Assembly: GCA_034414775.1 (NCBI GenBank)
Contig: DAOULX010000019.1
Coordinates: forward strand, 13,891 to 77,890
DNA length: 64,000 nucleotides
Direction of reading: 5' to 3'
Source: Dehalococcoidales bacterium
Lineage (GTDB): Bacteria > Chloroflexota > Dehalococcoidia > Dehalococcoidales > RBG-16-60-22
Of the stretch, positions 36,496-54,083 are shown piece by piece. The translations under genes were made by a program, and so were the position numbers. Positions within the stretch are counted from its first letter, which is position 1, and each line of letters begins with the position of its first letter. A model generated the notes under the pieces. The model made no database searches, was not told where the DNA came from, and saw nothing but the letters and a program-made list of their open reading frames with translations.

Positions 36496-37677
36496 CTATG
36501 GTTCTAGCTTAGCAGAAAGGCCGGCGGGCTGCAAATGAGCGGCACTTTTCGGGGCTTTGATTCCGAACAGGAAACGCGTCACCCTGGTGCGGCGGACCGC
36601 TTCGTAGATAGCCAGGGCGCTCAGGAAGACGCCGAAGATGATCAGGAAGTATTTGGCGGCGATGGGGATGTCCCAGGTGACGATATAAAACCCGAAAACG
36701 ACTATCAGCGTCTGGTGCAGGATGTACACCGGCAGCACCGCGTCGCTAGCATAGCGGCGCAGCCTGCTATCGATATTGAGTAATTGCATGCCCATCCCGA
36801 CAATGGCGAGCAACCAGATCCAACAAGCGATGCCATAAAGAGCCAGGAGAGTCCATTCCGGGATCCCGAACACCTTGGTTTCTATGAGATAAAGCAAAAC
36901 GAGTATAACGATGGCCGTCGCCAAGAAGATGTAGCGCTGCCGCCAGACCGTCCGCGTTATCTGGCTGTCCGAGACAAGTATGAAGCCGCTGAAAAAGACG
37001 GTAATGTAAAAAAGGAAGTTCCTCCAATCGCTGATGAGGGTATGATTACCCGAGCCATAAATCGGTAGGAGAAAGACTTCGTAGACTATCAGCGGGATGG
37101 CCGGCAAGAGTATAGCGCCGGAACGCGAGAAAAAATTGCCGATGTGGTATAGTATTGCCACATTTTCCTCTCGGCGCAGATAGCGGAGAAGCGGCAGGAG
37201 GAGCAAGGAAAAAACGAAGAGGTAGGCCAGGAACCAGAGGTGGTGCCAGCTCAGGTTGCCGGTGGCGGCGTCGTCATTGGAATAGGTGCCGTGGAAAGTG
37301 TTGGGGTACCATGTGAAAAACGAGCCGGTAAAATCTCCATTAAAAATGCGTTCCACGTAGACCTGCGGCGGCACGATGACGAGCATGCCGAAGATGAGCG
37401 GCACTAGGATGCGGAAAAACCTTTCCCGTGAGAACTGCCAGGAGGTGCGTTTGCCAAGGGAAAACCAGACCGCCGCACCGGCAACGAGGAAGAACAACGG
37501 CATCTGCCAAACATCTAGAACGCTATTAAACACCTCAATGGCGAAGTTCTCGGTGGTGTTCTTGATATGCCAGGGCGTTTCGTCGAACAGTCTACCGGTG
37601 TGAAAAAATACCAGCAGAAACATGGCCCCGGCCCGGAGCCAATCGATGTAGTATTGCCGGTCCGGCTTTTGCTGCAT
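36496..37677 (-). CDS. Acyltransferase-3 family membrane protein
   Basis: 10-11 TM helices. N-terminal YIDWLRAGAMFLLVFFH motif. Start set at ATG 37677. Confidence 0.8.
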   Translation of the reverse strand: MQQKPDRQYYIDWLRAGAMFLLVFFHTGRLFDETPWHIKNTTENFAIEVFNSVLDVWQMPLFFLVAGAAVWFSLGKRTSWQFSRERFFRILVPLIFGMLVIVPPQVYVERIFNGDFTGSFFTWYPNTFHGTYSNDDAATGNLSWHHLWFLAYLFVFSLLLLPLLRYLRREENVAILYHIGNFFSRSGAILLPAIPLIVYEVFLLPIYGSGNHTLISDWRNFLFYITVFFSGFILVSDSQITRTVWRQRYIFLATAIVILVLLYLIETKVFGIPEWTLLALYGIACWIWLLAIVGMGMQLLNIDSRLRRYASDAVLPVYILHQTLIVVFGFYIVTWDIPIAAKYFLIIFGVFLSALAIYEAVRRTRVTRFLFGIKAPKSAAHLQPAGLSAKLEP

Positions 37678-37756
37678 CAGGACTGCCCTTGAAGACCGCC
37701 CTATTTCGTCGATAATGCTACCACAATGGCGTCGTCGCAGCAAGATGGCTGCGGCA

Positions 37757-38971
37757 TTATCTCCTCAAACTGCGCATTATCTCCCCAAGCCCGGGCCGCT
37801 TGCCGTACATCAGGAGGTACGACCGGATGATCCTGGCGGAGAGCAGCAGTCCCCCGGCGATACACAGCGCCAGCACGGCTAGGCTGGCGGCTATCTGCCA
37901 GGCGGGAATCTCCGATGCGCCGATCCTGAGCATCACCACCACCGGGGCGGTGATGGGGAAAATCGTCAGAACGATCCATATCACGGCTTTGGGGAACAGG
38001 AGAAGTAGGGACGAAAACCAGAGGGGTGAAACGGCGGTGAGGACGAACAATGTGGAGAGCTGCTGGCCCTCCCGTGCCGAGGGGCTGACGGCGCCGATGC
38101 TCGTTGATATCACGGCGAACAACAGGTAACCCAGCACGAAATAGACGATTGCCAGGACCAGGAATCCGGCGGGGAGTTCTATCGTGGCGATGAAACCGCC
38201 GAAAGTAGACGAGGCCAATCCCAGCAGGAGCGGCAATGAGATTACCCAGACAACCACCTGCACCAGGCCGCCGGCGCCGATACCGAAGACCTTGCCGATC
38301 ATCACCTGCCGGGTCGAAACAGAGGATAGCAGCACCTCGATGAGGCGATTCTCTTTCTCCTCACCCAGCCCTTGCAGTAGGTAGCCCGAGGAAAACGTGA
38401 TAGCGAGCACCAGCAGCAGGCTAAAGACCGCCGGGATGATAAGGTTGCCGTAACCGCCCTGCTCGGTGGCGATGTCCCCCGTCTCCGTCAGCCGAGTGGT
38501 AATCAGGAAGGGGGGAGCCTGGATACGGTCGATAGTGGCCTGGGGCACGTTACTGGCCAGGAGATTGCTGGAAACGAAAGTACTGATGGCAGCGGCTACC
38601 GACGGCGGCGCTTCAAGCTGTTTTTCCAGGGTGTAGCGGTCGATCACACCCCTGTCGACATAGTCCTGCGGGATAACGAAGTACTCCTTGACGGCGCCGC
38701 TGAGTAAGGCTTCTCTGGCATCGGCCTCGGTGTCAAAGGAGGTCAGTGTTATGTTCCCCTGCGTCGTGTAGCCTTCGAATCCGCCACCCTTGGCAACGTA
38801 ACCGACATCTATGAATTCCGGTGGCCCCGGCTGGAGACTCCCCGAAATGATTGAAACGACGGCGATGGCGAGCAGTCCCAGGACCGGCACGATGAAGGTC
38901 ATGATGATGAAACCCGGCCTCTTTATCGTGGAAAGGAACTCGTGTTTCAGTATCAGGCCCGTCTTATTCAT
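37757..38971 (-). CDS. ABC-2 type transporter permease (NatB-like)
   Basis: 404 aa. One N-terminal TM helix, a large extracytoplasmic loop, and a C-terminal 5-TM bundle. 8-nt overlap with the ATPase gene. Confidence 0.8.
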   Translation of the reverse strand: MNKTGLILKHEFLSTIKRPGFIIMTFIVPVLGLLAIAVVSIISGSLQPGPPEFIDVGYVAKGGGFEGYTTQGNITLTSFDTEADAREALLSGAVKEYFVIPQDYVDRGVIDRYTLEKQLEAPPSVAAAISTFVSSNLLASNVPQATIDRIQAPPFLITTRLTETGDIATEQGGYGNLIIPAVFSLLLVLAITFSSGYLLQGLGEEKENRLIEVLLSSVSTRQVMIGKVFGIGAGGLVQVVVWVISLPLLLGLASSTFGGFIATIELPAGFLVLAIVYFVLGYLLFAVISTSIGAVSPSAREGQQLSTLFVLTAVSPLWFSSLLLLFPKAVIWIVLTIFPITAPVVVMLRIGASEIPAWQIAASLAVLALCIAGGLLLSARIIRSYLLMYGKRPGLGEIMRSLRR

Positions 38972-39860
38972 GGCTCTTACTCACCACATCGATAAATATT
39001 TCGTGTAACGGGGGAGTCGCTATTTCAAATCGGTTGATTTCGATGCCCCGGCTAACCAGGTATTCTAGTACCTCCTGAGGCGTACCACCGCTATCCAGGA
39101 ACAGTTCCGTGTGGTCCTTGTGGACCTGTGTCCGGGCGACTCCTGGCACGTCCCCCAGTTCGCCCTTGAAATCGAGTTGGATCGAGTTGCTTCTGTATCG
39201 GGACTTGATCTCATTCAGGTCTCCGTACAGGACGGCCTTCCCGCGGTCCATCATGAGGATACGGTCGCAGAGTTCCTCCACCTGGTTCATCTGGTGGGTA
39301 CTCAGGACGATGGATTTGCCCTGGCCGCGCAGGTCTAATAGCATCCCTTTCAACAGCTCGGTGTTGACCGGGTCGAGGCCGGAGAAGGGGTCGTCCATGA
39401 TAATAAGCTCGGGATCGTGGACAACGGTCACGATGAACTGGATAATCTGGCCCATACCCGTGCTCAGCTCGTCTATCTTCTTCCTCTGGTGCGGCAACAT
39501 TCCGGTCATGCCGAGCAGTTCGTTGGCCCTGGTGAGAGCGACCTCCCTGCTGGTGCCTTTGAGCGATGCCAGGTAGATGATGGACTCGATGACCCTCATC
39601 TTTTTATAGAGGCCTCTTTCCTCCGGCAGGTAGCCGAGCCGGTTCTTGGTGGCCTCACCAAGTTGCTCGCCGAGGATGGTCACCTGTCCCGAGTCCGGTT
39701 TGATAATATCCATCATCATCCTGATGGTGGTGGTCTTGCCCGCGCCGTTGGGGCCGATCAGACCGAATATTTCGCCCTGGTCGAGGGAGAAAGAGAGGTC
39801 ATTCACGGCGACCTTATCCGCAAAGGACTTGGAGATATGACTTACTTCGACGGCGTGCAT
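38964..39860 (-). CDS. ABC transporter ATP-binding protein (NatA-like)
   Basis: Walker A GPNGAGKTT, signature LSTGMGQ, and Walker B LIIMDDPFSGLD. Confidence 0.88.
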   Translation of the reverse strand: MHAVEVSHISKSFADKVAVNDLSFSLDQGEIFGLIGPNGAGKTTTIRMMMDIIKPDSGQVTILGEQLGEATKNRLGYLPEERGLYKKMRVIESIIYLASLKGTSREVALTRANELLGMTGMLPHQRKKIDELSTGMGQIIQFIVTVVHDPELIIMDDPFSGLDPVNTELLKGMLLDLRGQGKSIVLSTHQMNQVEELCDRILMMDRGKAVLYGDLNEIKSRYRSNSIQLDFKGELGDVPGVARTQVHKDHTELFLDSGGTPQEVLEYLVSRGIEINRFEIATPPLHEIFIDVVSKSHE

Positions 39861-40301: not shown

Positions 40302-41555
40302 TCATGCCGCAGACTGCGTAACTTGTTTCGAACGACCTGTTTTAGCTACCCGGTAAGAAGAGAGCCATATTCCACCGCATATACCGAGAATCACGGCCAA
40401 GACGGTTGCGCCCCTGAAACCTATTATCAGGTCATACCAGGTGTAGACGGAATACAGGAGCAGCACAAGCAGGCTGCCATACCTCCCGAATAGATGCAGG
40501 AATCCGAACCGGCGGAAAACGAAAAGCCCGATAAAGAACGTTACAACAACCGAGATGACCAGTAATGTGAAATAGAAAAGGACTGGTATTAGCCAGGTAT
40601 TGAATTTCATATTGCCCACCGTGTCAAGGGACGGGTAATATAGCAACTCATTCGTGATGAACGGTGGAGATAAAACATTCGGTGGCGAGAGTATTTCCTG
40701 GTAGCTTTTGTAGAGATGTGAGTCAAGGCCGGTAATAAGTTCAACTGTATCATCAATGGTGAGTGTCCGAACGTCCGGCTGTGATGCCACCCACTTCAGA
40801 ATTTCGTCAAATTCCTGGAAAGTCACAAAACCCCTTTTTGTGTCTATTTCCCGGAAGTCGTCGGCATAGAACAGGGTAATGATGATGGGATGAGAATCGC
40901 GGCTTTTTCTGGCTTCCCTGATGGCATTCTGTAATTCAGGGATGCCGCCGGTCGATGGTAAAAAATTGAGTCGGGACGGGTCTACCGCCGGACCATTCAA
41001 ATCCGCCGATATGGTAGTGAAATTCAGCTCTTCAAGTACTTGTACTGTTGTAGAATCGTAGCTATTCCACGGCGGAGTGAATGTTGTGATTTTTGTATCA
41101 AGCATATCCTCTAACAACTTTTTCCCTTCGACTATTTTCTGTCTTTGACCATCATAGTCGAGGCCGGCGAACTCCGTATACCCTCCTTCGGATGACGCGC
41201 GGCGTGTTTGATGAGAGTATCCGTGCAGGGCTACCTCAACGGTAGTGTCCATGGTGTCTTTTAGTATACCAGCCTTCTCCGGGGAGAGGAGGATAACACC
41301 CTGCGGGGAAGGATCTAATATATCTTTATCACTCAAACATGGAACGACGCCAATTGTGCACGAAAGGTTGTAGGTCTGCAGGGCGTCGATCATTTTAACG
41401 TAAAAATCAGTCCCGCTTATGCTGCTGCAGTCGTCGAACCGAAAAACGACCGTGATTGTTTTCGGTTCGCTATCCGAGGCGGACACCGAGGATGTCAACC
41501 AGAGAGATAGCAGAACCGTCAGGGCAGCGAAAAAGCCTATCTTGTTACGTGTCAT
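40302..41555 (-). CDS. DUF2334/polysaccharide-deacetylase-like exported protein with C-terminal TM helices
   Basis: Signal peptide. VVFRFDD and ALHGYSHQ blocks. Three C-terminal TM helices. The gene is AT-richer than its neighbours. Confidence 0.65.
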   Translation of the reverse strand: MTRNKIGFFAALTVLLSLWLTSSVSASDSEPKTITVVFRFDDCSSISGTDFYVKMIDALQTYNLSCTIGVVPCLSDKDILDPSPQGVILLSPEKAGILKDTMDTTVEVALHGYSHQTRRASSEGGYTEFAGLDYDGQRQKIVEGKKLLEDMLDTKITTFTPPWNSYDSTTVQVLEELNFTTISADLNGPAVDPSRLNFLPSTGGIPELQNAIREARKSRDSHPIIITLFYADDFREIDTKRGFVTFQEFDEILKWVASQPDVRTLTIDDTVELITGLDSHLYKSYQEILSPPNVLSPPFITNELLYYPSLDTVGNMKFNTWLIPVLFYFTLLVISVVVTFFIGLFVFRRFGFLHLFGRYGSLLVLLLYSVYTWYDLIIGFRGATVLAVILGICGGIWLSSYRVAKTGRSKQVTQSAA

Positions 41556-41659: not shown

Positions 41660-42601
41660 TCATTTCCCGAGGCTGTCGTAAATACTCCGCAGCCCGTCTT
41701 CAAGATTGAACTCCGGATTATATCCGAATTCCCGGGCCCGGGATATGTCCGCCAGGCTATATAAGATATCACCGGGGCGGGGGTCTTCGTATTTCGGGCT
41801 CAGGTCCCGGCCGGATAGACTTATGACAAGCTGGGCGAGCTCATTGATGGTAACGCTCTCCCCCCGGCCGATATTATAGATGCCCGAGGCTGTTCCCTCT
41901 GCGGCCAGGATATTGGCAACTGCGACATCCTTGACAAAGGTGAAGTCCCTCGTCTGTGTGCCATCCCCGTAGATAACCGGCGCTTCGCCGGAGCCGGTCC
42001 GCTGGATGAAGCTGGGGATGACGGCGGCGTACTGAGAACTGGGGTCTTGCCTCGGCCCGTACACGTTGAAATACCTCAGGCTGGCGGTAGGTAGGGAGTA
42101 GACCTGCTCGAAAACCCCGCAGTAGTATTCCCCGGCGACTTTGGAAACGGCGTAGGGAGACTGCGGACTGGGTGACATGTCCTCACGTTTGGGCAGGGTG
42201 GGGGTATCTCCATAGACGGACGATGATGAGGAATACACGACCTTACTGACGCCGGCATCTCGGGCCGCCATGAGCACCTTAAGCGTGCCGGTGCCGTTGA
42301 TTTCGTGTGAAGCCAGGGGTTCCTGGATACTCCTCGGTACGCTGGGCAGGGCCGCCAGATGAAAAACGAAACGCGCCCCCCGGAATACATTATTCAGGGA
42401 AGGCAGGTCGGTGATGCTCCCCCGATGAAACTCGACATCCTGGTTTTCTAAGAGCACCTCGATGTTAGCCATGGATCCTGTTGAAAGATCATCGAAAATG
42501 ACGACCCTGTAACCGCGTTCAGTAAGCTCCTCAGCCACATGAGACCCGATAAAACCGGCCCCGCCGGTAACGACCGCTTTATCCATCCGGCTCCTTTTCA
42601 A
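41660..42601 (-). CDS. NAD-dependent sugar-nucleotide epimerase/dehydratase (extended SDR)
   Basis: GGAGFIGSH Rossmann motif and YxxxK (YAVSK). Confidence 0.85.
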   Translation of the reverse strand: MKRSRMDKAVVTGGAGFIGSHVAEELTERGYRVVIFDDLSTGSMANIEVLLENQDVEFHRGSITDLPSLNNVFRGARFVFHLAALPSVPRSIQEPLASHEINGTGTLKVLMAARDAGVSKVVYSSSSSVYGDTPTLPKREDMSPSPQSPYAVSKVAGEYYCGVFEQVYSLPTASLRYFNVYGPRQDPSSQYAAVIPSFIQRTGSGEAPVIYGDGTQTRDFTFVKDVAVANILAAEGTASGIYNIGRGESVTINELAQLVISLSGRDLSPKYEDPRPGDILYSLADISRAREFGYNPEFNLEDGLRSIYDSLGK

Positions 42602-42753: not shown

Positions 42754-43965
42754 TTATGAAGATAAATTTTGTGCCGCTGTTCGTTCCAAGACTTCGTTGA
42801 GTCGGTCCGCCAGCTTTGCCCAGGAATGTTCGGTGACCATTAGATGCCTCGCCGCCACACCGATTCGTTCCCGGAGACGTTTGTCATTGAGGAGAGCAAT
42901 GACCCTATCGGCGAACTCAGCCGGTCTTTCGGCAATGATGATATTTTCCTCCGGGGAAACATCGATCCCGGTGGTTACCGGTGGCGTAGCCACGACCGGC
43001 CGTCCGGTGGCCATGGCCTGCAATATCCTGACCTTAACGCCGAAGCCCTCCTGTAGCGGGGCTGCCACTACCCAGGCACGGCGAAGGTACGGGCGCAGAT
43101 CGGGGACATAACCGGTAACAGTCACCGAGGCGTCCTCCGCCAGCGCCTTTATCTCCGTATCTGGATTGCTGCCTACAACTTGTAGTTGAATCCTCGGAAT
43201 CCTTTCCTTTATCAGCGAGTATATTTCACGGTAAAATTCCATCACCGCGGCTGTGTTCCGGGGACCGCTCATCGAACCGGTGATAATCAATGTCGGCGAC
43301 TCTGCCTCCATATCATCGGCCTCGAAAAAGCCATCATCAACGCCGTAGGGTATTACTACGAAGTTCAGACTCGAGTCGTGTGCTCTTACCATATCCCGCT
43401 GGTGTGATGAAACGGCAATCAAGAGATTTACCCGGTGGTAGAGCCTGGCATAGCCCCGCGTTTGCCGGTGGTAAACGTAGCGCAAAATCTTCTTCAGCGG
43501 ATTCTTTTCTAGCCGATACTCTAGATGGCTTATCTCGGCCGGGGCGAAGGCTTCCAGTAGTACCACCGGGATGCCCTTATCCAGCACGTAACCCAGCATG
43601 GCCGGATGGTCAACGGCGATGATATCATAGCCTGCACCATGCAAAAGGGCATTTACCCGGGTATCCATCTCCGAGGAGTAGCCATAACGTGTGAAAGCGG
43701 GCAGCCCGGAGGACATATTCAATATTCGCGGGATGCTTTTCAGGATCACCCCCGGGGCCCCGAAGCCGGGTCGGCGGGCTAACTCCACCGTTTCCACACG
43801 GGCGTGCTGGCTCAGGTCCGGGTAGCTTTTACCCCGCAGCTTAAACGCCGCCAGGGTAACTTGGTGGCCGTGTTTCCCGGCAAGGTGTTCTAGCGAGTAA
43901 CGCACCCGGTGGCTGCCGGCTATCTCCGGGGCGGGGTGTTCGTAGCAGAGAAAGAGAATTTTCAT
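42754..43965 (-). CDS. Glycosyltransferase, GT4-like (GT-B fold)
   Basis: C-terminal EGFGVKVRILQAMATGRPVVATP block. Confidence 0.8.
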   Translation of the reverse strand: MKILFLCYEHPAPEIAGSHRVRYSLEHLAGKHGHQVTLAAFKLRGKSYPDLSQHARVETVELARRPGFGAPGVILKSIPRILNMSSGLPAFTRYGYSSEMDTRVNALLHGAGYDIIAVDHPAMLGYVLDKGIPVVLLEAFAPAEISHLEYRLEKNPLKKILRYVYHRQTRGYARLYHRVNLLIAVSSHQRDMVRAHDSSLNFVVIPYGVDDGFFEADDMEAESPTLIITGSMSGPRNTAAVMEFYREIYSLIKERIPRIQLQVVGSNPDTEIKALAEDASVTVTGYVPDLRPYLRRAWVVAAPLQEGFGVKVRILQAMATGRPVVATPPVTTGIDVSPEENIIIAERPAEFADRVIALLNDKRLRERIGVAARHLMVTEHSWAKLADRLNEVLERTAAQNLSS

Positions 43966-43967
43966 GT

Positions 43968-45071
43968 CTATGCACCGTACGCAATCAATCGACTGTATAA
44001 CTTAATCAACTTCGCGGAGTTGTCTTCCAAAGCTATTCCATCAAGGATTTGCCGGTGCTGCTCGTAGTTCTGTAATACGTCCTTCACCTGGCGTGTCAGG
44101 TCATCGATGTCCCGGTTCTTAAAGATAGTCGCCCCTTCCGGTCGGGGGCAAACGTCACTGGCTACCGAGGGTACCTTGAAAAACAATGCCTCGCGGAGTG
44201 AGTTGGCATCACCATCAGTGTTGGTGGGCCTGATAAAGACCTGGCTTTTCATCAGGATAGGGTAGAGTTGATAGGCACCGGTGATGAATTTGAAATTGCT
44301 TTCCAGCCCCATTTCTGCGATACGTTGCCTCATCACATCGAAATATTTTTTATCGCCAACCTGGGGCAGGGAAAAAACCATGCCCAATCCGGGGTAACTG
44401 GACTTCAGGTTGGCACAGAGCTCGACACAAAGGTCCAGTCCGTAGAGGTCCTGGCCCCGATAAAATGTTAGGGCATAGGCATTCGCCGAGATTATCGGCT
44501 GGTGGCTATCAATGAACTCCCATACGTCCGGTGGTATAGCGTCGAATTCATCCTTCCGCACGGGGGGCGGAATAAAGTTCGGGATGATGGTAATACGCTC
44601 CGGCGCGACCCCCAGCGACAGGCAAAGCTCCCTAATGATCTCATTGTGGGCGATTACAGCGTTGTAGCGCCTCAGTGAAGAGGCGATGATTTTGCGGCGG
44701 AGCCATCGATTTTCCAGGGAGTCCTGGAGGCTTTGCCCGCCGATGGAGATTAGCGTTCGTTTTCCCAGTAGGCCTATTGTCCCCACCGCCACCCGCACCC
44801 GCCAGTCGATGTAATGGCAACAGATCAGGTCCTCTTTGGCCGTAAAAAGGTATCGAAGCAACCACCAGGCCCTATTTCCAATGCGAGCCACAGCGCCGTT
44901 CCGATGGACTACTCTTCTATTTACCAGGTCGTAGACCACGTATTCAAGATCGGTTTCATCTATCCGCTGAACCAGCCGTTGTAAGGGTACGGTGAATCCA
45001 CCGAAGGGCGGTGGCAGCGCCCCCAGAAAAGCTATAACCGGCTTCTTTCCGGCCTTAGACATCGGCATCAT
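43968..45071 (-). CDS. Glycosyltransferase, GT-B fold
   Basis: C-terminal GDANSLREALFFKVPSVAS (E-x7-E-like) block. Confidence 0.7.
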   Translation of the reverse strand: MMPMSKAGKKPVIAFLGALPPPFGGFTVPLQRLVQRIDETDLEYVVYDLVNRRVVHRNGAVARIGNRAWWLLRYLFTAKEDLICCHYIDWRVRVAVGTIGLLGKRTLISIGGQSLQDSLENRWLRRKIIASSLRRYNAVIAHNEIIRELCLSLGVAPERITIIPNFIPPPVRKDEFDAIPPDVWEFIDSHQPIISANAYALTFYRGQDLYGLDLCVELCANLKSSYPGLGMVFSLPQVGDKKYFDVMRQRIAEMGLESNFKFITGAYQLYPILMKSQVFIRPTNTDGDANSLREALFFKVPSVASDVCPRPEGATIFKNRDIDDLTRQVKDVLQNYEQHRQILDGIALEDNSAKLIKLYSRLIAYGA

Positions 45072-46428
45072 CCGCCAGACTGACGGGAAGTTTCTGGATC
45101 AAGAAGTTATATTTTCCTCGAGCTGTGCGGGGGATTTCCTCCACGAAACGTATCTCCAGTTTCATATCATCGCCCAGTTTTTTAAGCAGTTCCGCCCTGA
45201 TGTAATCCGTATCCCCATCGGTATAGCTGTCCTTCCTGACGATTTTGAAGACGACCTCCCCCTTTTTCTCCTGGTAGAACTGGAACTGGGCCACGTTCTC
45301 GAAGACGTCCGAGTGCATGTTGATGGCCGTGATGGAAATGGGCCGGTTGTTCGTGGCGACGATAAACTCTTGGAGCCAGCGGCCCCGCACGCCCTTGATG
45401 CGGGGGTACTGCCGGCGGCAGTGGCAGTCGCCGTCGGCCCACATGGCCAGGTCGTCAGTCCGGTACCGGATGAACGGCATAGCTAAGCTGGTAAGCGCCG
45501 TTCCCACGATGTTGCCGGCCTCGTCGGCGTTGGCAACCGGGCTGCCGTCCTCCCGGACGAGCTCGGTAATGCCATATTCGGGGAAGAGGTGGTACTCCCG
45601 GTTCGTCTCGCACTCACCGGCCAGCACCGCCCTTTCGGCGTGGCCGTACCAGGTATAGACGCGGCATTTCAGGGCTTCTTCCAGGAGCTCGCGCTGGCCG
45701 GGATACATGTTTTCCGAGCCGCAAAGGACCGCCCGCAGGCCGTTAAAAGCCGCGGTACCGTTCTTTTTCATGAAACGCGCCACTATCGATACCGTCGAAG
45801 GATAGGCCTGGATAAAGCGTGGTCGGAACCGTCGTATCTCTTCAATATAGCGGGGAATGTTGTCATTCGCCAGATGGTAAGTCGACAGCACCAGCCAGCG
45901 GTCGAAGAGCGTTTTTTCCCAAAGCCGGCCCGCCTCGGCGCCGGCTACGACGCTACCCTTGAGAACGGCGCACCTGTCACGGAAATGATAGCCGACACGC
46001 TCCCAGAGCATCTTGATGAAGGCCCATTCCGTTGCCCGCGATACCGCTTTCTCATAGTAAAATCCGAGGGGAACGCCCGTAGAGCCGCCGGTAGTAACGT
46101 ACTCCAGCCTGGCGGGGGAATAGTTGCTGGATATCAGGTCTTTCAGGTTAGTGCGGACCAGGTCACGGGTCAGGAAGGGCAGCTTTTTAAGGTCGTTGAA
46201 GTCCTGGATGTGCCCCGGTTTGAGGCCGCGTTCGTCAAAGACACGGCGGTAGTAGGGGACGCTAGTATAGGCATGCTCCAGCAAGCGGCCCAACTGCCGC
46301 ATCTGGTACTCCTCGAGCTGTTGCCGGCTCCACCACTGCGATTTTTTTAAAAGGTTATAGGTCTTCAAGAAAGCCGGTAGCGCCGGCAGCAGGCCGACCG
46401 CTTTCTGCGTTACCGATGCTTCTTTCAC
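45055..46428 (-). CDS. Adenylate-forming enzyme of the phenylacetate-CoA ligase / CapK / F390-synthetase family
   Basis: TTGGSTGVPL AMP-binding motif and a C-terminal RTARGKYNF. 17-nt overlap with the downstream GT gene. Confidence 0.8.
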   Translation of the reverse strand: MKEASVTQKAVGLLPALPAFLKTYNLLKKSQWWSRQQLEEYQMRQLGRLLEHAYTSVPYYRRVFDERGLKPGHIQDFNDLKKLPFLTRDLVRTNLKDLISSNYSPARLEYVTTGGSTGVPLGFYYEKAVSRATEWAFIKMLWERVGYHFRDRCAVLKGSVVAGAEAGRLWEKTLFDRWLVLSTYHLANDNIPRYIEEIRRFRPRFIQAYPSTVSIVARFMKKNGTAAFNGLRAVLCGSENMYPGQRELLEEALKCRVYTWYGHAERAVLAGECETNREYHLFPEYGITELVREDGSPVANADEAGNIVGTALTSLAMPFIRYRTDDLAMWADGDCHCRRQYPRIKGVRGRWLQEFIVATNNRPISITAINMHSDVFENVAQFQFYQEKKGEVVFKIVRKDSYTDGDTDYIRAELLKKLGDDMKLEIRFVEEIPRTARGKYNFLIQKLPVSLADDADV

Positions 46429-46440: not shown

Positions 46441-47502
46441 CTAGCCGACCTGGTATTTCTCCTTCATCCGGGCCACCACCATCTCCAAAGCACGGGTCGT
46501 CTCCCGGCCCTCCTCGGCTGTAATCGGCGGTTCGCGGCCGGTAATCACGCTATCAACAAAGGCACCGATGATTTTATTGTGACCGAAAAACTCACCCCTC
46601 CTGGTGATTACGTTGAGTGTATTTCCTCCCACCCCGCCGGCTGTACGGGCAGCCCCTCCCAGGGCGGCTGAAGCCAGCGAAACAGGGCTCATCTTCCGGT
46701 TCTTACCTTCCCGCACCAGCAACATGCCGAGCAGATCCAGATGCAGGGCTCCATCCGTCCCCAAAAGGTCGAGAGTCGAGGCGCGCCTGTGGCTGCTGTA
46801 GGAGATGACGATAGAGCTGTAGCCTTGCTCGCCTTCGAGGTCGATGCGGAACTCGTCGAAGGGGGCCCAGGGGTGCTCCAGGCGGCGCGTCGCAAAGACA
46901 TCGGCGCCTTTGATATTGCCGATAAAGGCGATGGACTTGTACACCGGGTGTGGCCCCGTCTCCCCGATGACGCCTCCGGGGAGCTTGTGTATCCAGTAGT
47001 CCTCCCTCATGATCATCTCATCCTGGGGATCGGACATGAAGATACGCATGCCAATGAAGTCCCCGATTACTCCCTTCGCCACCAGTTGCCTGGCTTTAAC
47101 AACCGGGGGATAAAAAAGCTGGTTGTGGACGATGCACAGCTTACGTCCACTTTTATCGGCGGCGGCTATCATGGCGTCGCAGTCCGAGGTCTTGAGGGCC
47201 ATGGGCTTTTCCAGGATGACATGGCAACCCGCTTCCAATGCCTCGATGGCCAGGGAGGCGTGGACCTGCGGGGGCGTGCAGATATCGATGATGTCCGGCT
47301 TCTCCGCTTCGAGCAGGGGCGCCAGGTCGTTATAGACGCCCGGAATGCTGTTCTTCGCCGCCGTTTCGGCGGCGAGTGTTTCGTTCTTATCACAGACGGC
47401 CCGGAGGGCGGCTTTGCCTTTTAGTCTCAGAAAAGCCGGGATGTGGCGTATGGTGGCGATGGCTCCGCAGCCGACTATACCAACCTTCAACAGGTCTGCC
47501 AT
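46441..47502 (-). CDS. Gfo/Idh/MocA-family oxidoreductase
   Basis: N-terminal VGIVGCGAIATIRHIPA Rossmann motif and an EKPMA block. Confidence 0.85.
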   Translation of the reverse strand: MADLLKVGIVGCGAIATIRHIPAFLRLKGKAALRAVCDKNETLAAETAAKNSIPGVYNDLAPLLEAEKPDIIDICTPPQVHASLAIEALEAGCHVILEKPMALKTSDCDAMIAAADKSGRKLCIVHNQLFYPPVVKARQLVAKGVIGDFIGMRIFMSDPQDEMIMREDYWIHKLPGGVIGETGPHPVYKSIAFIGNIKGADVFATRRLEHPWAPFDEFRIDLEGEQGYSSIVISYSSHRRASTLDLLGTDGALHLDLLGMLLVREGKNRKMSPVSLASAALGGAARTAGGVGGNTLNVITRRGEFFGHNKIIGAFVDSVITGREPPITAEEGRETTRALEMVVARMKEKYQVG

Positions 47503-47517: not shown

Positions 47518-48516
47518 CTAGAACCTGGCATCCTGCTCGATTCGTTCACGGTTCTGGATGATCCAGTCATAGGCGGCCCGAATCCCCCGCTCCATGTCCG
47601 TCCCCGGCCGGTAGCCGAGGACACGACCGGCCTTTTCAATGGAGGCCCGCCGGCGTGTGATAAGGTCCCAGTCCCGTCGCGGTACCATCTTCACGCCGCT
47701 CTCGCTGCCGGTCATTTTGTTGACGATATTGGCGATGTCGATGACCTTAGTCTCTGTCTCCGAGGCCAGGTTGAAGGCGTCGCCGACCGCTTCCGGTATA
47801 ATACCCAATTTCAGCGTCCCGTCGACGATGTCATCGACGAAGGTGAAATCTCGCGTCTCTTCGCCGGTGCCGGTGATCGGGAGAGGCTGCTTGTGCAAGG
47901 CCCACCACAGGAAATTGGGAATCACGTTACGGTAGGCGCCAGGTATTTCGCCGGGACCGAAGACATTGAAGTACCGCGCGATTGCCACCGGCAGGCCGTA
48001 GTAGTTATAAAAGAAATTGCAGTAAAGCTCGCCGAGCAGCTTGGTAATCTGGTAGGGGGTATCCAGGTGCAGCGAGACGAAGTCCTCCTTGAGGGGCAGG
48101 GGCGCCCGGCTACCGTAGACCGAGCAGCCCGACGAGGCGAAGACAACCCGCTTCACTTTTGTCAGGTGAGAGTACTGTAATACTTTAATCGTACCCTGGC
48201 CATTAACGGCCAGGTCCGTCTCCGGGTGGTCCACCGAGTTCTGGTTGGCGAAGTGCGCCGCCAGGTGAAAAACATAGTCGATGCCGGGGGCGAAGGCGTG
48301 CTTGAGGACCTCGTCGTCGAGGATGCTGCCTTCGATGAAAGCCACGGAAGGGTCGGCGGGAACGTTCCAGCGGGCGGCCGCGGAAAGGTCGTCGAGGACA
48401 ATGATTCTGGCAGCCCCGGCTTTTATCAGGCCCTTGGTAAGGTTGGAGCCGACGCAGCCGGCGCCACCGGTGATGAGGACTTTGGTGCCTTTGTATTCCT
48501 TCAGATATTCGTCCAT
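47518..48516 (-). CDS. NAD-dependent sugar-nucleotide epimerase/dehydratase (extended SDR)
   Basis: VLITGGAGCVGSN and YQITK (YxxxK). Confidence 0.85.
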   Translation of the reverse strand: MDEYLKEYKGTKVLITGGAGCVGSNLTKGLIKAGAARIIVLDDLSAAARWNVPADPSVAFIEGSILDDEVLKHAFAPGIDYVFHLAAHFANQNSVDHPETDLAVNGQGTIKVLQYSHLTKVKRVVFASSGCSVYGSRAPLPLKEDFVSLHLDTPYQITKLLGELYCNFFYNYYGLPVAIARYFNVFGPGEIPGAYRNVIPNFLWWALHKQPLPITGTGEETRDFTFVDDIVDGTLKLGIIPEAVGDAFNLASETETKVIDIANIVNKMTGSESGVKMVPRRDWDLITRRRASIEKAGRVLGYRPGTDMERGIRAAYDWIIQNRERIEQDARF

Positions 48517-48576: not shown

Positions 48577-48649
48577 CTGTAGTTGCCTTGAGGCCAAGTG
48601 ACCGAATGCTAAATGGCACAAAAAAATCCCAATAAAATGACTCAAAGGC

Positions 48650-49858
48650 TTATTTGCCGACTGCCTCCTGTATCTTTTCTTCGAGCTGCCGGGCGATGCT
48701 CTCGTGGCTGTGAGTCCGCAGGACATACTCCAGGCCGGCCTTCCCCAGAGCCGCCCGTCTTTCCGCAGAACCGAGCAGGTCTGTTACCGCTTCGGCCATA
48801 CCGGGCGTGTCCGCAGTATAGACGATACCTTGCTCCTCCCCTAGGATGACAGCGATCATTCCGGGCAGGGCCGTGGCCACGAAAGGCTTACCGCAGGCCA
48901 GGAACTGCACCGTCTTGCCGGGGAAAATGTCCCGTGTGGCGTCGACGATGTTGAAGGTATTGATACAGACGTCCGCTAGGTTGATATACTGCGGCATCGT
49001 CTCGTAAGGCTCGAAGCCGGTGATGGTGACGCTTTCCCGCAGTTTATTTTCGTCGATTATCCCTTCCAGCTTGTCCCGCTGCGGGCCGTCTCCGACGATG
49101 AGCAGTCTGGCCCCGGGCACTTTCCCGGTGACCTGCCGGAAGGCCGGAATAAACGAGTCCAGGCCGCTGAAGTCGAACAGGGTTCCCATGAACAGGACCA
49201 CTGGATCCTTTTCACTGAGGCCCCAGCGGTGGCGGAGGTCGGCGGGGGGAGGCTGGGGATGAAATATCCCGGTGTCCACCGGCATCAATAGCAGGCTGAC
49301 CTTGCTCTCATCCGCTCCCAGCCCTGCCACGTATTTGGTCAGGCCGGGCGTCAGCGCCAGTATCCGGTCGGCCTGGGTGTAGACCCGCTTTTCCAGGTAT
49401 CGGGTGACCGGCCGCAGCGGCGGCGCCACCACCAGCTGGTTGAGGATATCTATCGAGCGGAAAAGGACGGGTATACCGTGCTTGCGGGCGGTACGGATGG
49501 TCTGTATTCCCGTAGTTGGAACGCTATAGAGCACGATAGCATCGATCTTTTCCTGCCGGACAACGTTTTCAATAACGCGGCCACTGGTACATCTCGCAGA
49601 AAGACGGCTCAGACAGGGCGCCTTAATGAAGCCGGGTCGGACAAGCTCCACCGACGATCCGGGCAGAGCCCGGGAGACACCGGGAAACCGCCGCGTCCTG
49701 AGGCTCCCGAAATCGAAGGGGCTGCTTTTTTGCCAGGTATTTTCGTAATCGACAGCGAAGATGCGATGTCCCCGCAGCGAACGGGCTTCCGCCAGGCTAT
49801 GAATATCGAAGACGACTTTTTTAAGCCAGTCTACCTCGTGGACGAAGAGGATATTCAT
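48650..49858 (-). CDS. Glycosyltransferase, GT4-like
   Basis: GT-B C-terminal block (TVQFLACGKPFVATALPGM). Confidence 0.8.
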   Translation of the reverse strand: MNILFVHEVDWLKKVVFDIHSLAEARSLRGHRIFAVDYENTWQKSSPFDFGSLRTRRFPGVSRALPGSSVELVRPGFIKAPCLSRLSARCTSGRVIENVVRQEKIDAIVLYSVPTTGIQTIRTARKHGIPVLFRSIDILNQLVVAPPLRPVTRYLEKRVYTQADRILALTPGLTKYVAGLGADESKVSLLLMPVDTGIFHPQPPPADLRHRWGLSEKDPVVLFMGTLFDFSGLDSFIPAFRQVTGKVPGARLLIVGDGPQRDKLEGIIDENKLRESVTITGFEPYETMPQYINLADVCINTFNIVDATRDIFPGKTVQFLACGKPFVATALPGMIAVILGEEQGIVYTADTPGMAEAVTDLLGSAERRAALGKAGLEYVLRTHSHESIARQLEEKIQEAVGK

Positions 49859-49870
49859 GCCGGGGCTTCC

Positions 49871-50797
49871 CTATTTAATACCATAGACGGTCTTCATCCA
49901 CTCGATCGTCCTCGGAATGCCCTTTTCCGGCGGCACCTTCGGGTCGTGCTTCAGGTCACGGCGGGACTTGCTGTAGTCCATATGCTTGACCTGGGTGGTG
50001 AACGGCTCGGCCTCTTTGTAGGTTACCTGCGAGTCGTCCTTGCCCAGGTAGTTCAGGATGATATCGGAGACGTGCTTTATCTCGCACTCCCATTCTTCCT
50101 TGCCGCCGATGTTGTAGACTTCGCCGGGGATAAAGTTGTCGACGATGTTGGCGAAGGTGCGGGCTGTATCTTCAATATAGTCGAAGATGCGTTTGTGTCC
50201 CATGTAGACGGTATACGGCTCATCGTGGAGGGCTTTGTAGATGAAAGCCGGGACGACGCCGCGGTAGGAGTGGTAATGCTCGTGGGGGCCGTAGGCATTG
50301 ACCGGGCGCACCCGGACGGTCTCGGTGCCGAACATGGCCGCCGAGTTCAGTACCATCAGCTCGCCGGCCCACTTGGTGACGGCGTAGTCGTTCATCTGCT
50401 TGATGGCGAGTTTGTCCATGACGTCTTCGCTCATGACGCCGGTATAGTCGCCGTAGACCTCGGCGCTGGAAAAGAATACCATGCGGAACTTTTTCTGCTC
50501 CTGGAGGCGCAATAGATGCTTGGTACCGATAACATTGGTCTGCCAGAGGTTCTCGTAGTAGTCTTCACCGTTCCAGCGTCCGTACTCCGCCGCCAGATGA
50601 TAAACGTAGTCGTAGTCCTGATTAATAAAGAGCCGTTCTAGCTGGCGGTATTCCCTGGCGTCACACCGGGTGTAGTTGGCTGTGGCCGCCGAGTTCATCA
50701 GATCGCAGACCCAGACATCATGGCCGCGTCCCCGGAGCTCCGGCACCAGGTTAGAGCCGATAAACCCCAGGCCACCGGTTACCAGTATCTTCGCCAT
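49871..50797 (-). CDS. NAD-dependent sugar-nucleotide epimerase/dehydratase (extended SDR)
   Basis: ILVTGGLGFIGSN and YAVTK (YxxxK). Confidence 0.85.
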   Translation of the reverse strand: MAKILVTGGLGFIGSNLVPELRGRGHDVWVCDLMNSAATANYTRCDAREYRQLERLFINQDYDYVYHLAAEYGRWNGEDYYENLWQTNVIGTKHLLRLQEQKKFRMVFFSSAEVYGDYTGVMSEDVMDKLAIKQMNDYAVTKWAGELMVLNSAAMFGTETVRVRPVNAYGPHEHYHSYRGVVPAFIYKALHDEPYTVYMGHKRIFDYIEDTARTFANIVDNFIPGEVYNIGGKEEWECEIKHVSDIILNYLGKDDSQVTYKEAEPFTTQVKHMDYSKSRRDLKHDPKVPPEKGIPRTIEWMKTVYGIK

Positions 50798-50971
50798 CTT
50801 GCCCCCCTTTTAAACATGAAAGTGTACCGTTTCGGTCATCCGGCAAACTCGAGCGTGGTTCACACACCGGATGGTAAGGTAAAATGCCGTCTCGTTTCTG
50901 TAATGGCATTTTAACTGATTATAGACCACCGTCTGGCCGCAATCAAGGCAAATTCCTTTACTCTGATTCTC

Positions 50972-51000
50972 TTGCCAATTGAGTTTAGGTGTGCCATAAT
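50972..51000 (+). promoter_or_regulatory. Sigma70-like promoter of the oligosaccharyltransferase gene
   Basis: TTGCCA, 17-nt spacer, CATAAT, with TGc immediately upstream (extended -10). Confidence 0.45.
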
Positions 51001-51047
51001 AGGCCTAATTCAAGCCCTTCAAATGTATCCCGGTCAGGAGTAGACAC

Positions 51048-53582
51048 TTGAATACTAACAGGTTATCGCCAAGGGTGATTGTCGGTATTCTGCTACTCGT
51101 GTTCTTCGGGGTTTCACTAATTATTCGGATAGTCTTACCTTACGGCCAGGTCTTCGAGGGCCAGATGGTGGTCTACACCAGTGTGGACGGCTACTACTAT
51201 ATGCGCCTGGTCGACAGCATGGTTCACAACTTCCCCCAGTACCTCAGCTTCGATCCCTTCCACATATTCCCGGGTGGTCAGACAATCGAACACCTGGGAT
51301 TCTTTTATCAGGTATTGGCCGGCATCATCTGGCTCTTCGGTCTGGGTAGCCCGAGCCAGAGTTTTATCGATGCTTTCGGCACGCTGTTCCCGCCTATCCT
51401 GGCGGCTTTAACGATTATCCCCGTATATTTCATCGGCAAGACGCTTTTCAACCGATGGGTCGGAGTCATCGCAGCGGTGTTGATGGCGGTTTTCCCGGGG
51501 GAATATCTGGGCCGGAGTCTACTCGGCTTTACCGATACCCCGGTGGTCGAGACTTTCTTCACCGCCACAGCGATGGCTTTCCTGGTTCTGGCAATTAAAT
51601 CGGCCTCGGAAAGGCAGCTGACCGTCAGTCATCTGCTTAAGCTCGAACGGGGTATTTTCCTCCGACCGGTTATTTACAGTCTCCTGGCGGGGGTCTTTCT
51701 GGGCACTTACATGGCCACTTGGAACGGGGGCCTTCTTTTTGTTTTCATCATCACGCTGTACCTGGTGGTTCAGTTCATCATCGACCACTTGAGGGGGCCT
51801 TCCTCCCCTGAAAGGACCGAATACCTGGGTATCGTGGGATTCGTGCTGTTTTTAATTACCGGCATCTTCTTTTTGCCCGTTTCGGAGGAACGATTTATAT
51901 CTGCAGCCGTGGTTATCGCCATAATCATTCCGGTGGCTATGGCGGCGGCTTCCCGCTTCATGTCCAGCCGTGGCCTGAAACCGGCTTATTACCCCCTGGC
52001 CATCCTCGGGCTGGCGGTGGTGATTGGAGGCATCACCTTTGCTATTTCCTCCCGCACCATGGAACTTATGGTCGGGGCCTTCCGTATCTTCGCCCCGGTG
52101 GGTAGCACCGCCGTTACCACGATGGAAATGCAGCCCTTCCTTGCCCCCACGGGTAGCTTCTCAACGGCGGTCGCCTGGGGCAACTTCACCACCAGTTTTT
52201 TCCTCTTCCCCGGCTGGGCGATACCGGGGATCGGGCTGATTGCTTACTTGGTTTTAACTTGGGTAATAACCAAGCAGCCAACGAATAGCCCGCAGCGTCT
52301 GCAGTTACGTGCGGCTAGCGTGGTAATGCTGGCGTTAGGCATTCTGTTACTCCTGATTTACTTTTCCTTGACGTCTTCGGTGGTAATTTTGGTATTCGCG
52401 GCCATTATATTGATACTATTCTTCATTGTTTTCATCTGGCTTTTTAGCAGGCCGGGCAACAACCGAAATGCTATAGTCATCTTCTTCATCTGGACATTGA
52501 TTATTCTTTCGCTGACGCTCGTGCAGCGTCGCTTCGCCTATTATCTGGTGGTGAACATGGCGCTGCTTACGGCCTACCTGTCCTGGGAGATAATCTGGCG
52601 GTTCAGCCTGAAGAAACTGGCGGAAAAGCCGGAAGTGGTGCCTGAGGAGGCCAAATCCAAAAAACGCCGGAGGCGCCGCACCGGTCCCAGCGTGGGTGGT
52701 TATCGCGTTATCACCGGAGCAGTTGCGGTGGTGCTTTTGGTAGTTGTCATACCTTGGAACATAATTAAATCTGTAGAGATAGCCTCGGCACCGGCTTTTC
52801 TGCCCTCGGCGGCCTGGCAGGAGTCACTGACCTGGATGAAAGACAATACCCCGGAGCCTCTCGGGGCTCCTGATGACTATTACCAGCTTTACAAATCAGA
52901 TTTCGAATACCCGGCCTCGGCCTACGGTGTAACATCATGGTGGGACTACGGCTACTGGATAACGCGGATTGGCCATCGGATTCCCAGTGCCAATCCTTCC
53001 CAGGAACCCGATCCGATTTTGAAAGTCGCTTCCCTTTTCCTGTCCCATGATGCTTCCCAGGCCGGGAATATCCTGGGTGAATTGCAGACCAAATATATCG
53101 TCGGGGATCATGCCACCGCTACCAGCAAGTTCTGGGCCATCGTCACCTGGGCCGGCGAGCCACAGGAAAATTACCTACCTGCGTATTTCGTCCAGCAGGG
53201 AGACGCTATCCAGCAGGCGCAAGTCTATACACCGGAGTACTACCAGACGTTATATATCCGGCTCTATAATTTCAACGGTCAAGAGGTAACTAAAGCGAGG
53301 CCGATTGTCGTTGCTTTCACAGAGAGAGAGACGAGCGATGGCGTACCCTACCGCCTGGTTACGGAATCACGGCAGTTTGATAGTTATCCGGCAGCGCTGG
53401 CCTATGTGGAGGAAGCTGGAGCGGAGACCCACGCTGTTGTCGGTAGTAATCCCTTTATAAGCCCGGTGCCACTGGAAGCGGTGCCGGACTTTTCGCTGGT
53501 ATTTGAATCAACGAAAAAAATCAGCGTCCCGGAGGCCGGTTCGAAACCGGAAGTCAAAATCTTTGAATATACCCGGCCTTAG
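51048..53582 (+). CDS. STT3/AglB/PglB-family oligosaccharyltransferase (archaeal-like)
   Basis: 844 aa. A ~13-TM N-terminal domain plus a soluble C-terminal domain. Hallmark motif SWWDYGYWI. First-loop acidic motif VDGYYYMRLVD and second acidic motif GFTDTPVVE. TTG start with AGGAG 7 nt upstream. Confidence 0.85.
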   Translation: MNTNRLSPRVIVGILLLVFFGVSLIIRIVLPYGQVFEGQMVVYTSVDGYYYMRLVDSMVHNFPQYLSFDPFHIFPGGQTIEHLGFFYQVLAGIIWLFGLGSPSQSFIDAFGTLFPPILAALTIIPVYFIGKTLFNRWVGVIAAVLMAVFPGEYLGRSLLGFTDTPVVETFFTATAMAFLVLAIKSASERQLTVSHLLKLERGIFLRPVIYSLLAGVFLGTYMATWNGGLLFVFIITLYLVVQFIIDHLRGPSSPERTEYLGIVGFVLFLITGIFFLPVSEERFISAAVVIAIIIPVAMAAASRFMSSRGLKPAYYPLAILGLAVVIGGITFAISSRTMELMVGAFRIFAPVGSTAVTTMEMQPFLAPTGSFSTAVAWGNFTTSFFLFPGWAIPGIGLIAYLVLTWVITKQPTNSPQRLQLRAASVVMLALGILLLLIYFSLTSSVVILVFAAIILILFFIVFIWLFSRPGNNRNAIVIFFIWTLIILSLTLVQRRFAYYLVVNMALLTAYLSWEIIWRFSLKKLAEKPEVVPEEAKSKKRRRRRTGPSVGGYRVITGAVAVVLLVVVIPWNIIKSVEIASAPAFLPSAAWQESLTWMKDNTPEPLGAPDDYYQLYKSDFEYPASAYGVTSWWDYGYWITRIGHRIPSANPSQEPDPILKVASLFLSHDASQAGNILGELQTKYIVGDHATATSKFWAIVTWAGEPQENYLPAYFVQQGDAIQQAQVYTPEYYQTLYIRLYNFNGQEVTKARPIVVAFTERETSDGVPYRLVTESRQFDSYPAALAYVEEAGAETHAVVGSNPFISPVPLEAVPDFSLVFESTKKISVPEAGSKPEVKIFEYTRP

Positions 53583-53636
53583 TTTCGCCCGGCACCAGTC
53601 TTTTGGCCTTTGGGCCTCTTTAAACGCGGGCAAGCT

Positions 53637-54083
53637 ATGAGCGGCAAGAAGAGGTTGTCCAAGGCTCTTTCTATTATCCTCGGACTTATTATCCTTGGAT
53701 TAGTTGTTGCCGTGGTTATAACGCTTGTTTTTCCAGCGGCGGAGGAGGCCTACACCGAGTTCTATATCCTCGGCCCCGGCGGGAAAGCGGTCGGCTATCC
53801 TTTGGAGTTTACCGCCGGCGATGAGCAATCGGTAATCATCAGTATCGTCAGCCACGAACGTGATAGAAATACCTTCCGGGTCGATGTCGAAGCCGGCGGG
53901 ACGATTCTCGCGGCAGCCGGCCCGATTGTGCTGGACCCTCTTGAAAAATATGAAGAACCCATCGTCTTCACGGTAAATCCGGCCGGCAGCCAGCAGCAGG
54001 TGACATTCCTCCTCTACAAGGACGGGGAGGCGGGGGCCTACCGTTCCCTGCACCTTTGGGTAGACGTGTCCCCGCCGCCCTAG
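53637..54083 (+). CDS. Single-pass membrane protein with a DUF1616-like extracytoplasmic domain
   Basis: N-terminal TM helix, then YTEFYILGPGGKAVGYPLEF..SVIISIVSHERD..FRVDV, which resembles the archaeal DUF1616 pattern as I remember it. The start (ATG 53637 versus TTG 53610) is uncertain. Confidence 0.55.
   Translation: MSGKKRLSKALSIILGLIILGLVVAVVITLVFPAAEEAYTEFYILGPGGKAVGYPLEFTAGDEQSVIISIVSHERDRNTFRVDVEAGGTILAAAGPIVLDPLEKYEEPIVFTVNPAGSQQQVTFLLYKDGEAGAYRSLHLWVDVSPPP

Follow-up and report, generated by a model that had tools for sequence, protein, structure and literature searches.

An archaeal-type AglB oligosaccharyltransferase in Dehalococcoidia, encoded beside a divergent glycan cluster

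In the usual account, N-linked glycosylation among bacteria is a PglB trait of Campylobacterota and of some Desulfobacterota. The solved oligosaccharyltransferase (OST) that stands closest to the enzyme described here, by both sequence and fold, is archaeal AglB-L from Archaeoglobus fulgidus (AfAglB-L, AF_0380; structures 3WAJ, 3WAK, 5GMY and 7E9S). In this enzyme the acceptor asparagine is activated by Asp47 and Glu360, a metal is bound by Asp161 and His163, and the +2 Ser/Thr is recognized by the WWD motif together with the lysine of the DK motif (PMC7226087). The metal-ligand position of His163 is occupied by Asp156 in PglB and by Glu168 in yeast STT3 (PMC7226087). The present analysis concerns a 64-kb stretch of DNA from a Dehalococcoidales bacterium (contig DAOULX010000019.1, positions 13,891 to 77,890), referred to below as the window, whose genes were called over its whole length on both the + and the - strand. 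Its central element is aglB (51048..53582, + strand), which encodes an AglB-type OST of 844 aa, is followed by a short DUF1616 gene and faces a divergent glycan cluster. The start codon is TTG, with AGGAG 8 nt upstream. An earlier sequence-only reading of the region had placed its left end at 50972, which is the position of a promoter-like site and not of the gene start. The three motifs that it quoted are all present in the protein: VDGYYYMRLVD at residues 46-56, GFTDTPVVE at 160-168 and SWWDYGYWI at 630-638.

The 844-aa protein is a DK-type, long, archaeal-type AglB oligosaccharyltransferase. It matches the Pfam STT3 N-terminal (8e-23) and AglB_core-like (2e-17) profiles, and it scores 563.8 bits against NCBIfam TIGR04154, above the curated cut-off of 450. 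This model describes the archaeosortase A system-associated OST subfamily and was seeded from archaea; it gives 519-631 bits for other Dehalococcoidia homologues and 577.8 bits for an archaeal homologue from Methanoregula. When the protein was searched against PDB sequences with phmmer, AfAglB-L was the best match (3WAJ/5GMY/7E9S, E 2.3e-50), human STT3A reached just 7e-5 and no PglB chain was returned at E <= 0.01. An AlphaFold2 model computed from 59 homologues (pLDDT 83.6, pTM 0.84) led to the same order of structures in Foldseek: AfAglB-L first (top entry 7e9s, E 2.7e-29, TM-score 0.66, 21-22% identity), then eukaryotic STT3 (E 1e-18 to 1e-12, 13-15% identity), then PglB (E 6e-10 to 1e-8, TM-score 0.42-0.46, 12% identity). 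Every full-length OST structure was ranked before DPY19, AftA and ArnT, which came far lower, with values weaker than 1e-7 (6e-3 for ArnT). About 13 or more transmembrane (TM) segments appear in the hydropathy profile, and the external domain at the C-terminus measures about 270 aa; model, structure search and hydropathy all describe the GT-C fold, a multi-pass TM domain followed by an external C-terminal domain. The profile matches of AglB, as well as those of the DUF1616 protein, the surrounding bacterial genes and the glycan cluster, are far beyond chance level. The impression of a long archaeal AglB is thus supported by TIGR04154, the PDB search and Foldseek, and the protein is neither PglB nor an ArnT/PMT-like GT-C enzyme.

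The catalytic residues point in the same direction. In the HMMER alignment to AfAglB-L, Asp47 corresponds to Asp47, Arg156 to Arg154, Asp163 to Asp161, and Glu360 of TTME to Glu360 of the TIXE motif (TIAE in AfAglB-L); WWDYG 631-635 is aligned with its counterpart (SWWDYGYWI against SWWDYGHWI) and Lys694 (ATSKFWAI) with Lys618 of the DK motif. The corresponding codons are 51186-51188 (Asp47), 51534-51536 (Asp163), 52125-52127 (Glu360), 52938-52952 (WWDYG) and 53127-53129 (Lys694). Across 193 AglB homologues, conservation is nearly complete for Asp47 (192/193), Asp163 (190/193), Glu168 (189/193), Glu360 (193/193) and Lys694 (180/193), and WWDYG is essentially invariant, with Trp632, Asp633 and Gly635 present in all of them. 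Three residues before the motif lysine, at the position of the Asp of the DK motif, AfAglB-L has Glu and the window AglB has Ala. The MxxI motif of bacterial PglB was searched for at this place and is absent, a lysine and not an isoleucine standing at the motif position. The typing of DK against MI that the sequence-only reading had called for therefore gives a DK-type lysine, and neither a placement with ArnT/PMT-like enzymes nor a failure of the catalytic residues to align, two of the outcomes that it had set against itself, was found.

Three classes of OST can be compared with the window enzyme in turn. AfAglB-L shares with it the TM domain of about 13 helices, the C-terminal core domain and the aligned catalytic residues. 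The two proteins differ by an identity of only about 21-22%, by the bacterial host, by a proline (Pro165) in place of His163 and by the short Lys/Arg-rich cytoplasmic loop that precedes the last TM helix of the window AglB. In the available sequence, an association with archaeosortase A, after which the subfamily is named, or a PGF-CTERM context did not come to light, and the called genes of the window include no Pfam match to an exosortase or archaeosortase. Campylobacter PglB (3RCE, 5OGL, 6GXC) resembles the window AglB as a bacterial single-subunit OST of GT-C fold with the WWD motif and acidic catalytic residues, and its gene likewise adjoins a glycan-assembly cluster. It differs in having MxxI where the window AglB has the DK-type lysine, it is the weakest fold match among the OSTs, and its PglC-type initiating enzyme and PglK-type flippase have no counterpart in the window. 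Eukaryotic STT3 (yeast 6EZN; human STT3A/B 6S7O/6S7T) has the DK-type motif, WWD and the glutamate of external loop 5 in common with the window AglB and is its second-best structural class, but acts within a multi-subunit complex, of whose other subunits no homologues occur here.

The loop before the last TM helix is the site of an insertion in some relatives. Of the top 120 AglB homologues, about 20 contain a DnaJ (J) domain, which Pfam identifies as internal, at residues 538-599 of P0065 (locus L020, 9956-12820) and 565-625 of P0017. It is located between the TM domain and the AglB core, i.e. in the cytoplasmic loop, whose counterpart in the window AglB is the short, low-confidence Lys/Arg-rich segment at residues ~520-553 (about 52605-52706). 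To our knowledge, no OST with an inserted J domain has been described.

The best explanation of the whole locus is a functional single-subunit AglB-type OST whose donor glycan is probably supplied by the divergent cluster, to which we give a probability of roughly 0.78. By analogy with A. fulgidus AglB-L, Asp47 and Glu360 would grip the carboxamide of the acceptor asparagine, while a divalent cation would be held by Asp47, Asp163 and Glu360 with Arg156 nearby. WWDYG and Lys694 would read the Ser/Thr at +2 of the N-X-S/T sequon. A preassembled glycan would pass from its polyprenyl-(pyro)phosphate carrier to asparagines of secreted or envelope proteins; in a bacterial host this carrier is unlikely to be the archaeal dolichol phosphate. 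The glycan itself would probably be the product of the divergent cluster, its initiating transferase being encoded elsewhere, and the DUF1616 protein, a probably co-transcribed and membrane-anchored external beta-sandwich, may bind the glycan or assist the enzyme.

The divergent cluster covers 36496-50797 on the - strand and encodes three epimerase/dehydratases, three family 4 glycosyltransferases (GT4), a GFO oxidoreductase, a CapK-like enzyme, a deacetylase, an ABC-2 transporter and an acyltransferase-3 protein. Its first gene, divergent from aglB, codes for Epim1, a NAD-dependent sugar-nucleotide epimerase/dehydratase (49871..50797; Pfam Epimerase, 3e-44). It is followed on the same strand by the glycosyltransferase GT4a (48650..49858; Pfam Glycos_transf_1), by Epim2, another NAD-dependent epimerase/dehydratase assigned by Pfam (47518..48516), and by a GFO/IDH/MocA oxidoreductase, also assigned by Pfam (46441..47502). 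The latter is possibly a sugar-nucleotide 3-dehydrogenase, with a weak match to the NCBIfam archaeal UDP-GlcNAc 3-dehydrogenase (90.9 bits, below the cut-off). A CapK-like or phenylacetate-CoA-ligase-like adenylating enzyme comes next (45055..46428; Pfam AMP-binding, weak, and CapK_C, with NCBIfam matches; 415 aa in the NCBI record), then GT4b (43968..45071; Pfam) and GT4c (42754..43965; Pfam, with a sub-threshold NCBIfam match to the PEP-CTERM/XrtA-system glycosyltransferase stp1). Epim3 is UDP-sugar 4-epimerase-like (41660..42601; Pfam Epimerase, 1e-63; sub-threshold NCBIfam TviC/GalE). The following gene, of lower G+C content (GC, 0.48), encodes a secreted, membrane-anchored polysaccharide deacetylase/DUF2334 protein assigned by Pfam, with hydrophobic segments at both its N- and C-terminus (40302..41555). 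The ABC-2 transporter (37757..39860; Pfam) is composed of an ATPase (38964-39860) and a permease (37757-38971) and is a candidate exporter or flippase for a lipid-linked glycan. At the cluster edge, an acyltransferase-3 family membrane protein (36496..37743; Pfam Acyl_transf_3; sub-threshold NCBIfam MdoC-like) is a possible glycan O-acyltransferase.

Several cluster genes remain beside AglB in other genomes. In 13 related Dehalococcoidales loci, AglB is flanked by orthologues of five cluster genes, or of six when a weaker ABC ATPase match is counted; gene order varies among these loci and AglB itself is 39-50% identical to that of the window. The most frequent are Epim1 (62-87% identity) and GT4a (52-59%), found in 7 loci each, followed by Epim2 (75-79%, 5 loci). 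The ABC transporter (57-72%) is directly divergent from AglB in two loci (L005 and L029) and GFO (72%) occurs in one (L042). More widely, the neighbours in 79 AglB loci are mainly sugar-nucleotide enzymes, GT4 and GT2 transferases, UDP-GlcNAc 2-epimerase, UDP-sugar dehydrogenase, DegT aminotransferases and Wzx-like flippases. The glycan cluster, as already proposed from the sequence and as assigned by Pfam, is therefore tied to AglB, and because the linkage persists in the 13 loci it supports a functional link between the two in a shared pathway.

A number of points weigh against this explanation. Among the called genes of the window, no initiating phosphoglycosyltransferase (PF00953, PF02397) or GT2 Dol-P-sugar synthase was found, and no Wzx/MurJ-type flippase either. 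The best NCBIfam matches of the GT4s, all sub-threshold, are transferases of exopolysaccharide (EPS) systems. No sequon-rich acceptor emerged when sequons were counted in the window's secreted and unknown proteins, 7182 open reading frames (ORFs) in 80 related loci yielded no PGF-CTERM-like tails in a regex search, and no experimental N-glycoproteins of Dehalococcoidia are reported in the searched literature. Pro165, discussed below, could alter or weaken catalysis from its place at a metal-ligand position. The view of the locus as a complete N-glycosylation locus is not sustained, since neither an initiating transferase nor a Wzx flippase lies in the window. The initiating transferase may be encoded elsewhere in the genome; WecA, for instance, is also located outside O-antigen clusters.

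These gaps leave room for a genuine OST standing next to a cluster whose product, a surface polysaccharide (EPS, capsule or S-layer-associated glycan) that leaves through the ABC-2 transporter, is unrelated to the OST, while the genes for the N-glycan donor lie elsewhere. The adjacency would then reflect the general clustering of envelope genes. The lack of initiating transferase and Wzx flippase fits this possibility, as do the PEP-CTERM/XrtA affiliation of the GT4 matches, the MdoC-like acyltransferase, the C-terminal domain of the ABC ATPase, which is of DrrA type and was not recognized as Wzt-like, and the occurrence of DUF1616 relatives in polysaccharide clusters devoid of STT3. It is nonetheless doubtful, for Epim1, Epim2, GT4a, GFO and ABC orthologues stay by AglB in the 13 loci despite rearrangement, and such persistence around an AglB that has diverged so far is what a shared pathway predicts.

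If functional, the OST may be assisted by the product of the gene that follows it. The scan for terminator-like sites found none in the 54-nt gap between the aglB stop codon and ATG 53637, so the short DUF1616 gene (53637..54083, + strand) is probably co-transcribed with aglB. Upstream of aglB lies the promoter-like site at 50972..51000 (+; TTGCCA-17-CATAAT, with TG before the -10 hexamer), and another faces the divergent cluster at 50918..50946 (-; TTGATT-17-TATAAT). Both are consensus matches only, from a scan that returned 5 sites where 2.7 +/- 1.8 were expected. Two starts can be considered for the DUF1616 ORF, ATG 53637, used in the public gene call (148 aa), and TTG 53610, located 27 nt after aglB (157 aa).

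The membership of this protein in DUF1616, which had been proposed from a motif, is established by Pfam (PF07760, 1.2e-27, 97.4 bits for a cut-off of 31.6). The match covers positions 146-307 of the 307 of the profile, i.e. the C-terminal half only. The small protein carries TEFYILGPGGKAVGYP...SHE, and an alignment of homologues shows TEFYILGPGGKA..YP..HE to be the conserved core of the family. Its AlphaFold2 model (pLDDT 95) consists of a TM helix at the N-terminus and, outside the membrane, an 8-strand beta-sandwich. The nearest Foldseek matches of this model are CARDB and other generic Ig-like domains, which are uninformative on function, and a PDB sequence search gave no meaningful match. 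In Haloferax volcanii, the DUF1616 membrane protein HVO_2173 is itself an AglB-dependent N-glycoprotein (PMC8241124). The window protein shares with this family the TEFYILGPGGKA..YP..HE core after a TM helix but lacks the N-terminal multi-TM half and, unlike HVO_2173, its translation contains no N-X-S/T sequon.

The short form is conserved, with homologues of 146-150 aa that are 56-86% identical, three of which share their contigs with the three closest long-contig AglB homologues. Weaker DUF1616 copies lie near AglB in loci L002, L020, L004 and L049. DUF1616 was also considered as a general neighbour of STT3, and this was rejected: three distant homologues on long contigs (from Peptococcaceae, Methanomicrobia and one other source) have no STT3 within 8 kb and belong to polysaccharide, exosortase or PglC-type clusters. 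The pairing with AglB is hence limited to the closest relatives, and the suggestion of a specific N-glycosylation partner is not supported beyond them. The protein is thus a surface-glycan-associated membrane protein, for which a role as OST accessory is possible, adjacency in close relatives being its one support. Directly downstream of AglB, five related loci encode a protein of about 488 aa without a Pfam match; it is absent from the window and, in L002 (2557-4023, +), stands between AglB and the DUF1616 gene.

A bolder version of the functional OST would be a full archaeal-style pathway in which DUF1616 is an accessory subunit of a two-component OST with a D-T-P site, and in which the J domain of sister enzymes couples glycosylation to DnaK-assisted export. 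We regard this version as unlikely.

The D-T-P site itself raises the question of the chemistry. The second metal-binding motif, D-x-(D/E/H), has its first aspartate in the window AglB (Asp163), but its third position, where AfAglB-L has His163, is occupied by Pro165 (codon 51540-51542) and offers no such ligand. Among the 193 homologues, 133 have His and 55 have Pro at this position. Only some Dehalococcoidia subclades show the D-[T/N/V]-P form (D-T-P, D-N-P or D-V-P), and they keep the other active-site residues. It could be proposed that the variant is not a classical N-glycosylating enzyme and that it hydrolyses the lipid-linked oligosaccharide to free glycan, uses another metal geometry or modifies an acceptor that is not asparagine or not protein. 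A proline where AfAglB-L, PglB and yeast STT3 all have a potential ligand, in a clade-restricted form, speaks for this proposal. We consider it quite improbable: the residues that recognize the sequon (WWDYG, Lys694) and those that activate asparagine (Asp47, Glu360) are all kept in the variant clade, which is diverse and full length, and this suggests purifying selection on an OST-like function. With 55 of 193 otherwise intact relatives also bearing it, Pro165 appears to be a tolerated active-site variant of a functional OST and not the sign of a dead enzyme.

The host and the surroundings of aglB are bacterial, as had been noticed from the sequence. DnaN encoded in the window shares 87% identity with proteins named "Dehalococcoidales bacterium", and aglB lies among lgt, dnaN, efp, tilS, moaA/C, znuABC and the pyruvate kinase gene. 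A scan of one genome per species yielded at least 527 loci with AglB relatives, from over 500 species genomes that are mostly Dehalococcoidia, and the best 80 loci, taken for detail, are overwhelmingly from Dehalococcoidia and other Chloroflexota. Distant copies of 26-32% identity occur in Phycisphaerae/Planctomycetes, in Bryobacterales and other Acidobacteria, in a few other bacteria and in Methanoregula. In a neighbour-joining tree, the window AglB forms a clade with four metagenomic proteins (59-63% identity by BLASTP) at a bootstrap value of 100/100, deep within the Dehalococcoidia radiation. Chloroflexota separate from the other bacteria plus archaea with a bootstrap value of 64/100 in this tree, which is midpoint-rooted and includes four archaeal sequences only, so that neither the direction nor the donor of any ancient transfer can be stated from it. 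The Methanoregula sequences of the scan have a degenerate VWDAG motif and are poor archaeal references. As a side observation, one Chloroflexota genome carries two AglB paralogues (L024 and L034) on a single 760-kb contig (CAVTJN010000004.1).

The position deep in the Dehalococcoidia radiation and an ordinary composition (GC at third codon positions, GC3, of 0.647, inside the range of the neighbours) indicate that aglB is a long-standing resident gene of the lineage and no recent archaeal import in this genome. It evolves much faster than housekeeping genes, since two genomes have AglBs only 44-48% identical to that of the window, against 85-86% for their DnaN. An acquisition from archaea as an event of one genome is thus not supported, in view of the at least 527 loci, the 100/100 subclade and GC3. 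An ancient archaeal origin of Dehalococcoidia AglB is plausible, and it would fit the reported transfer of the archaellum from Methanotecta to Dehalococcoidia and Anaerolineae (PMC12488501).

The matching assembly GCA_964393175.1 splits at ~32.4 kb of the window, between CAYMSP010000012 and CAYMSP010000002, and the junction falls inside the ORF at 31830-32936 (-), a quinolinate phosphoribosyltransferase-like gene. The window, which spans both contigs, thus belongs to another and more contiguous assembly of the same population. A recent import of aglB, an archaeal contaminant or a chimeric join in the metagenome-assembled genome might be suspected from this junction within the window and from a TIGR04154 model named after archaeosortase A and seeded from archaea, but is essentially refuted: the junction is 19 kb from aglB; in two assemblies the gene is flanked on either side by bacterial genes within a single contig; its GC3 is unlike that of a foreign TIR gene of the window (0.355); and its closest relatives are all from Dehalococcoidia genomes, among them contigs of 1.1 and 1.56 Mb on which a DnaN 85-86% identical is also encoded.

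Other features of the window can be listed briefly. Rfam and tRNA scans of the window found nothing. The TIR gene just mentioned (16593-17606, -) encodes a TIR_2-domain protein with a GC of 0.40 and a GC3 far from the value of ~0.7 in its neighbours, and this defence-type gene was probably gained by horizontal transfer. A FG-GAP repeat protein (21414-22664, -) has a signal peptide and, towards its C-terminus, a hydrophobic helix followed by a RRK tail, a layout similar to that of a sorting signal, and contains one N-X-S/T sequon only. At 23277-24770 (+), elongation factor P (EF-P) is directly followed by an EpmA/GenX-like truncated paralogue of class II lysyl-tRNA synthetase, beside which a myo-inositol-1-phosphate synthase of 535 aa is encoded (24788-26395, -). 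Downstream of the DUF1616 gene, three consecutive ORFs (55683-56033, 56093-56911 and 56957-57376, +; 116, 272 and 139 aa) resemble pieces of one YyaL/DUF255-type protein with thioredoxin and six-hairpin domains. The first matches Thioredox_DsbH (2e-56) and the second is weakly similar to six-hairpin glycosidases. The NCBI gene calls are divided in the same way, and a pseudogene or assembly frameshifts are possible. Finally, a very large HisKA_7TM sensor kinase containing many PAS domains starts at ~60625 (+) and extends past the window; it measures 1510 aa in the public record.

The annotation as such is not new, PGAP and IMG already naming Dehalococcoidia AglB proteins. Full-text literature searches found no paper that describes AglB/STT3 in Chloroflexota or Dehalococcoidia. 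Dehalococcoides mccartyi and SAR202 are described as peptidoglycan-free with S-layers, and it is from this lineage literature, rather than from the window sequence, that we infer an S-layer envelope for the host. For this group, glycosylation of the S-layer has so far been a matter of speculation only, and the enzymes considered were others (PMC4959059). Dehalococcoidia are now seen to have a conserved, fast-evolving and lineage-wide AglB of the archaeal subfamily, with relatives in Planctomycetota and Acidobacteriota. If the enzyme is active, the D-T-P variant and the relatives with an inserted J domain would serve as natural experiments on the OST mechanism, and these enzymes would enlarge the toolbox of bacterial glycoengineering. 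N-glycosylated envelope proteins would, in that case, be a general trait of a major class of environmental bacteria, in which AglB-type N-glycosylation is now directly testable.

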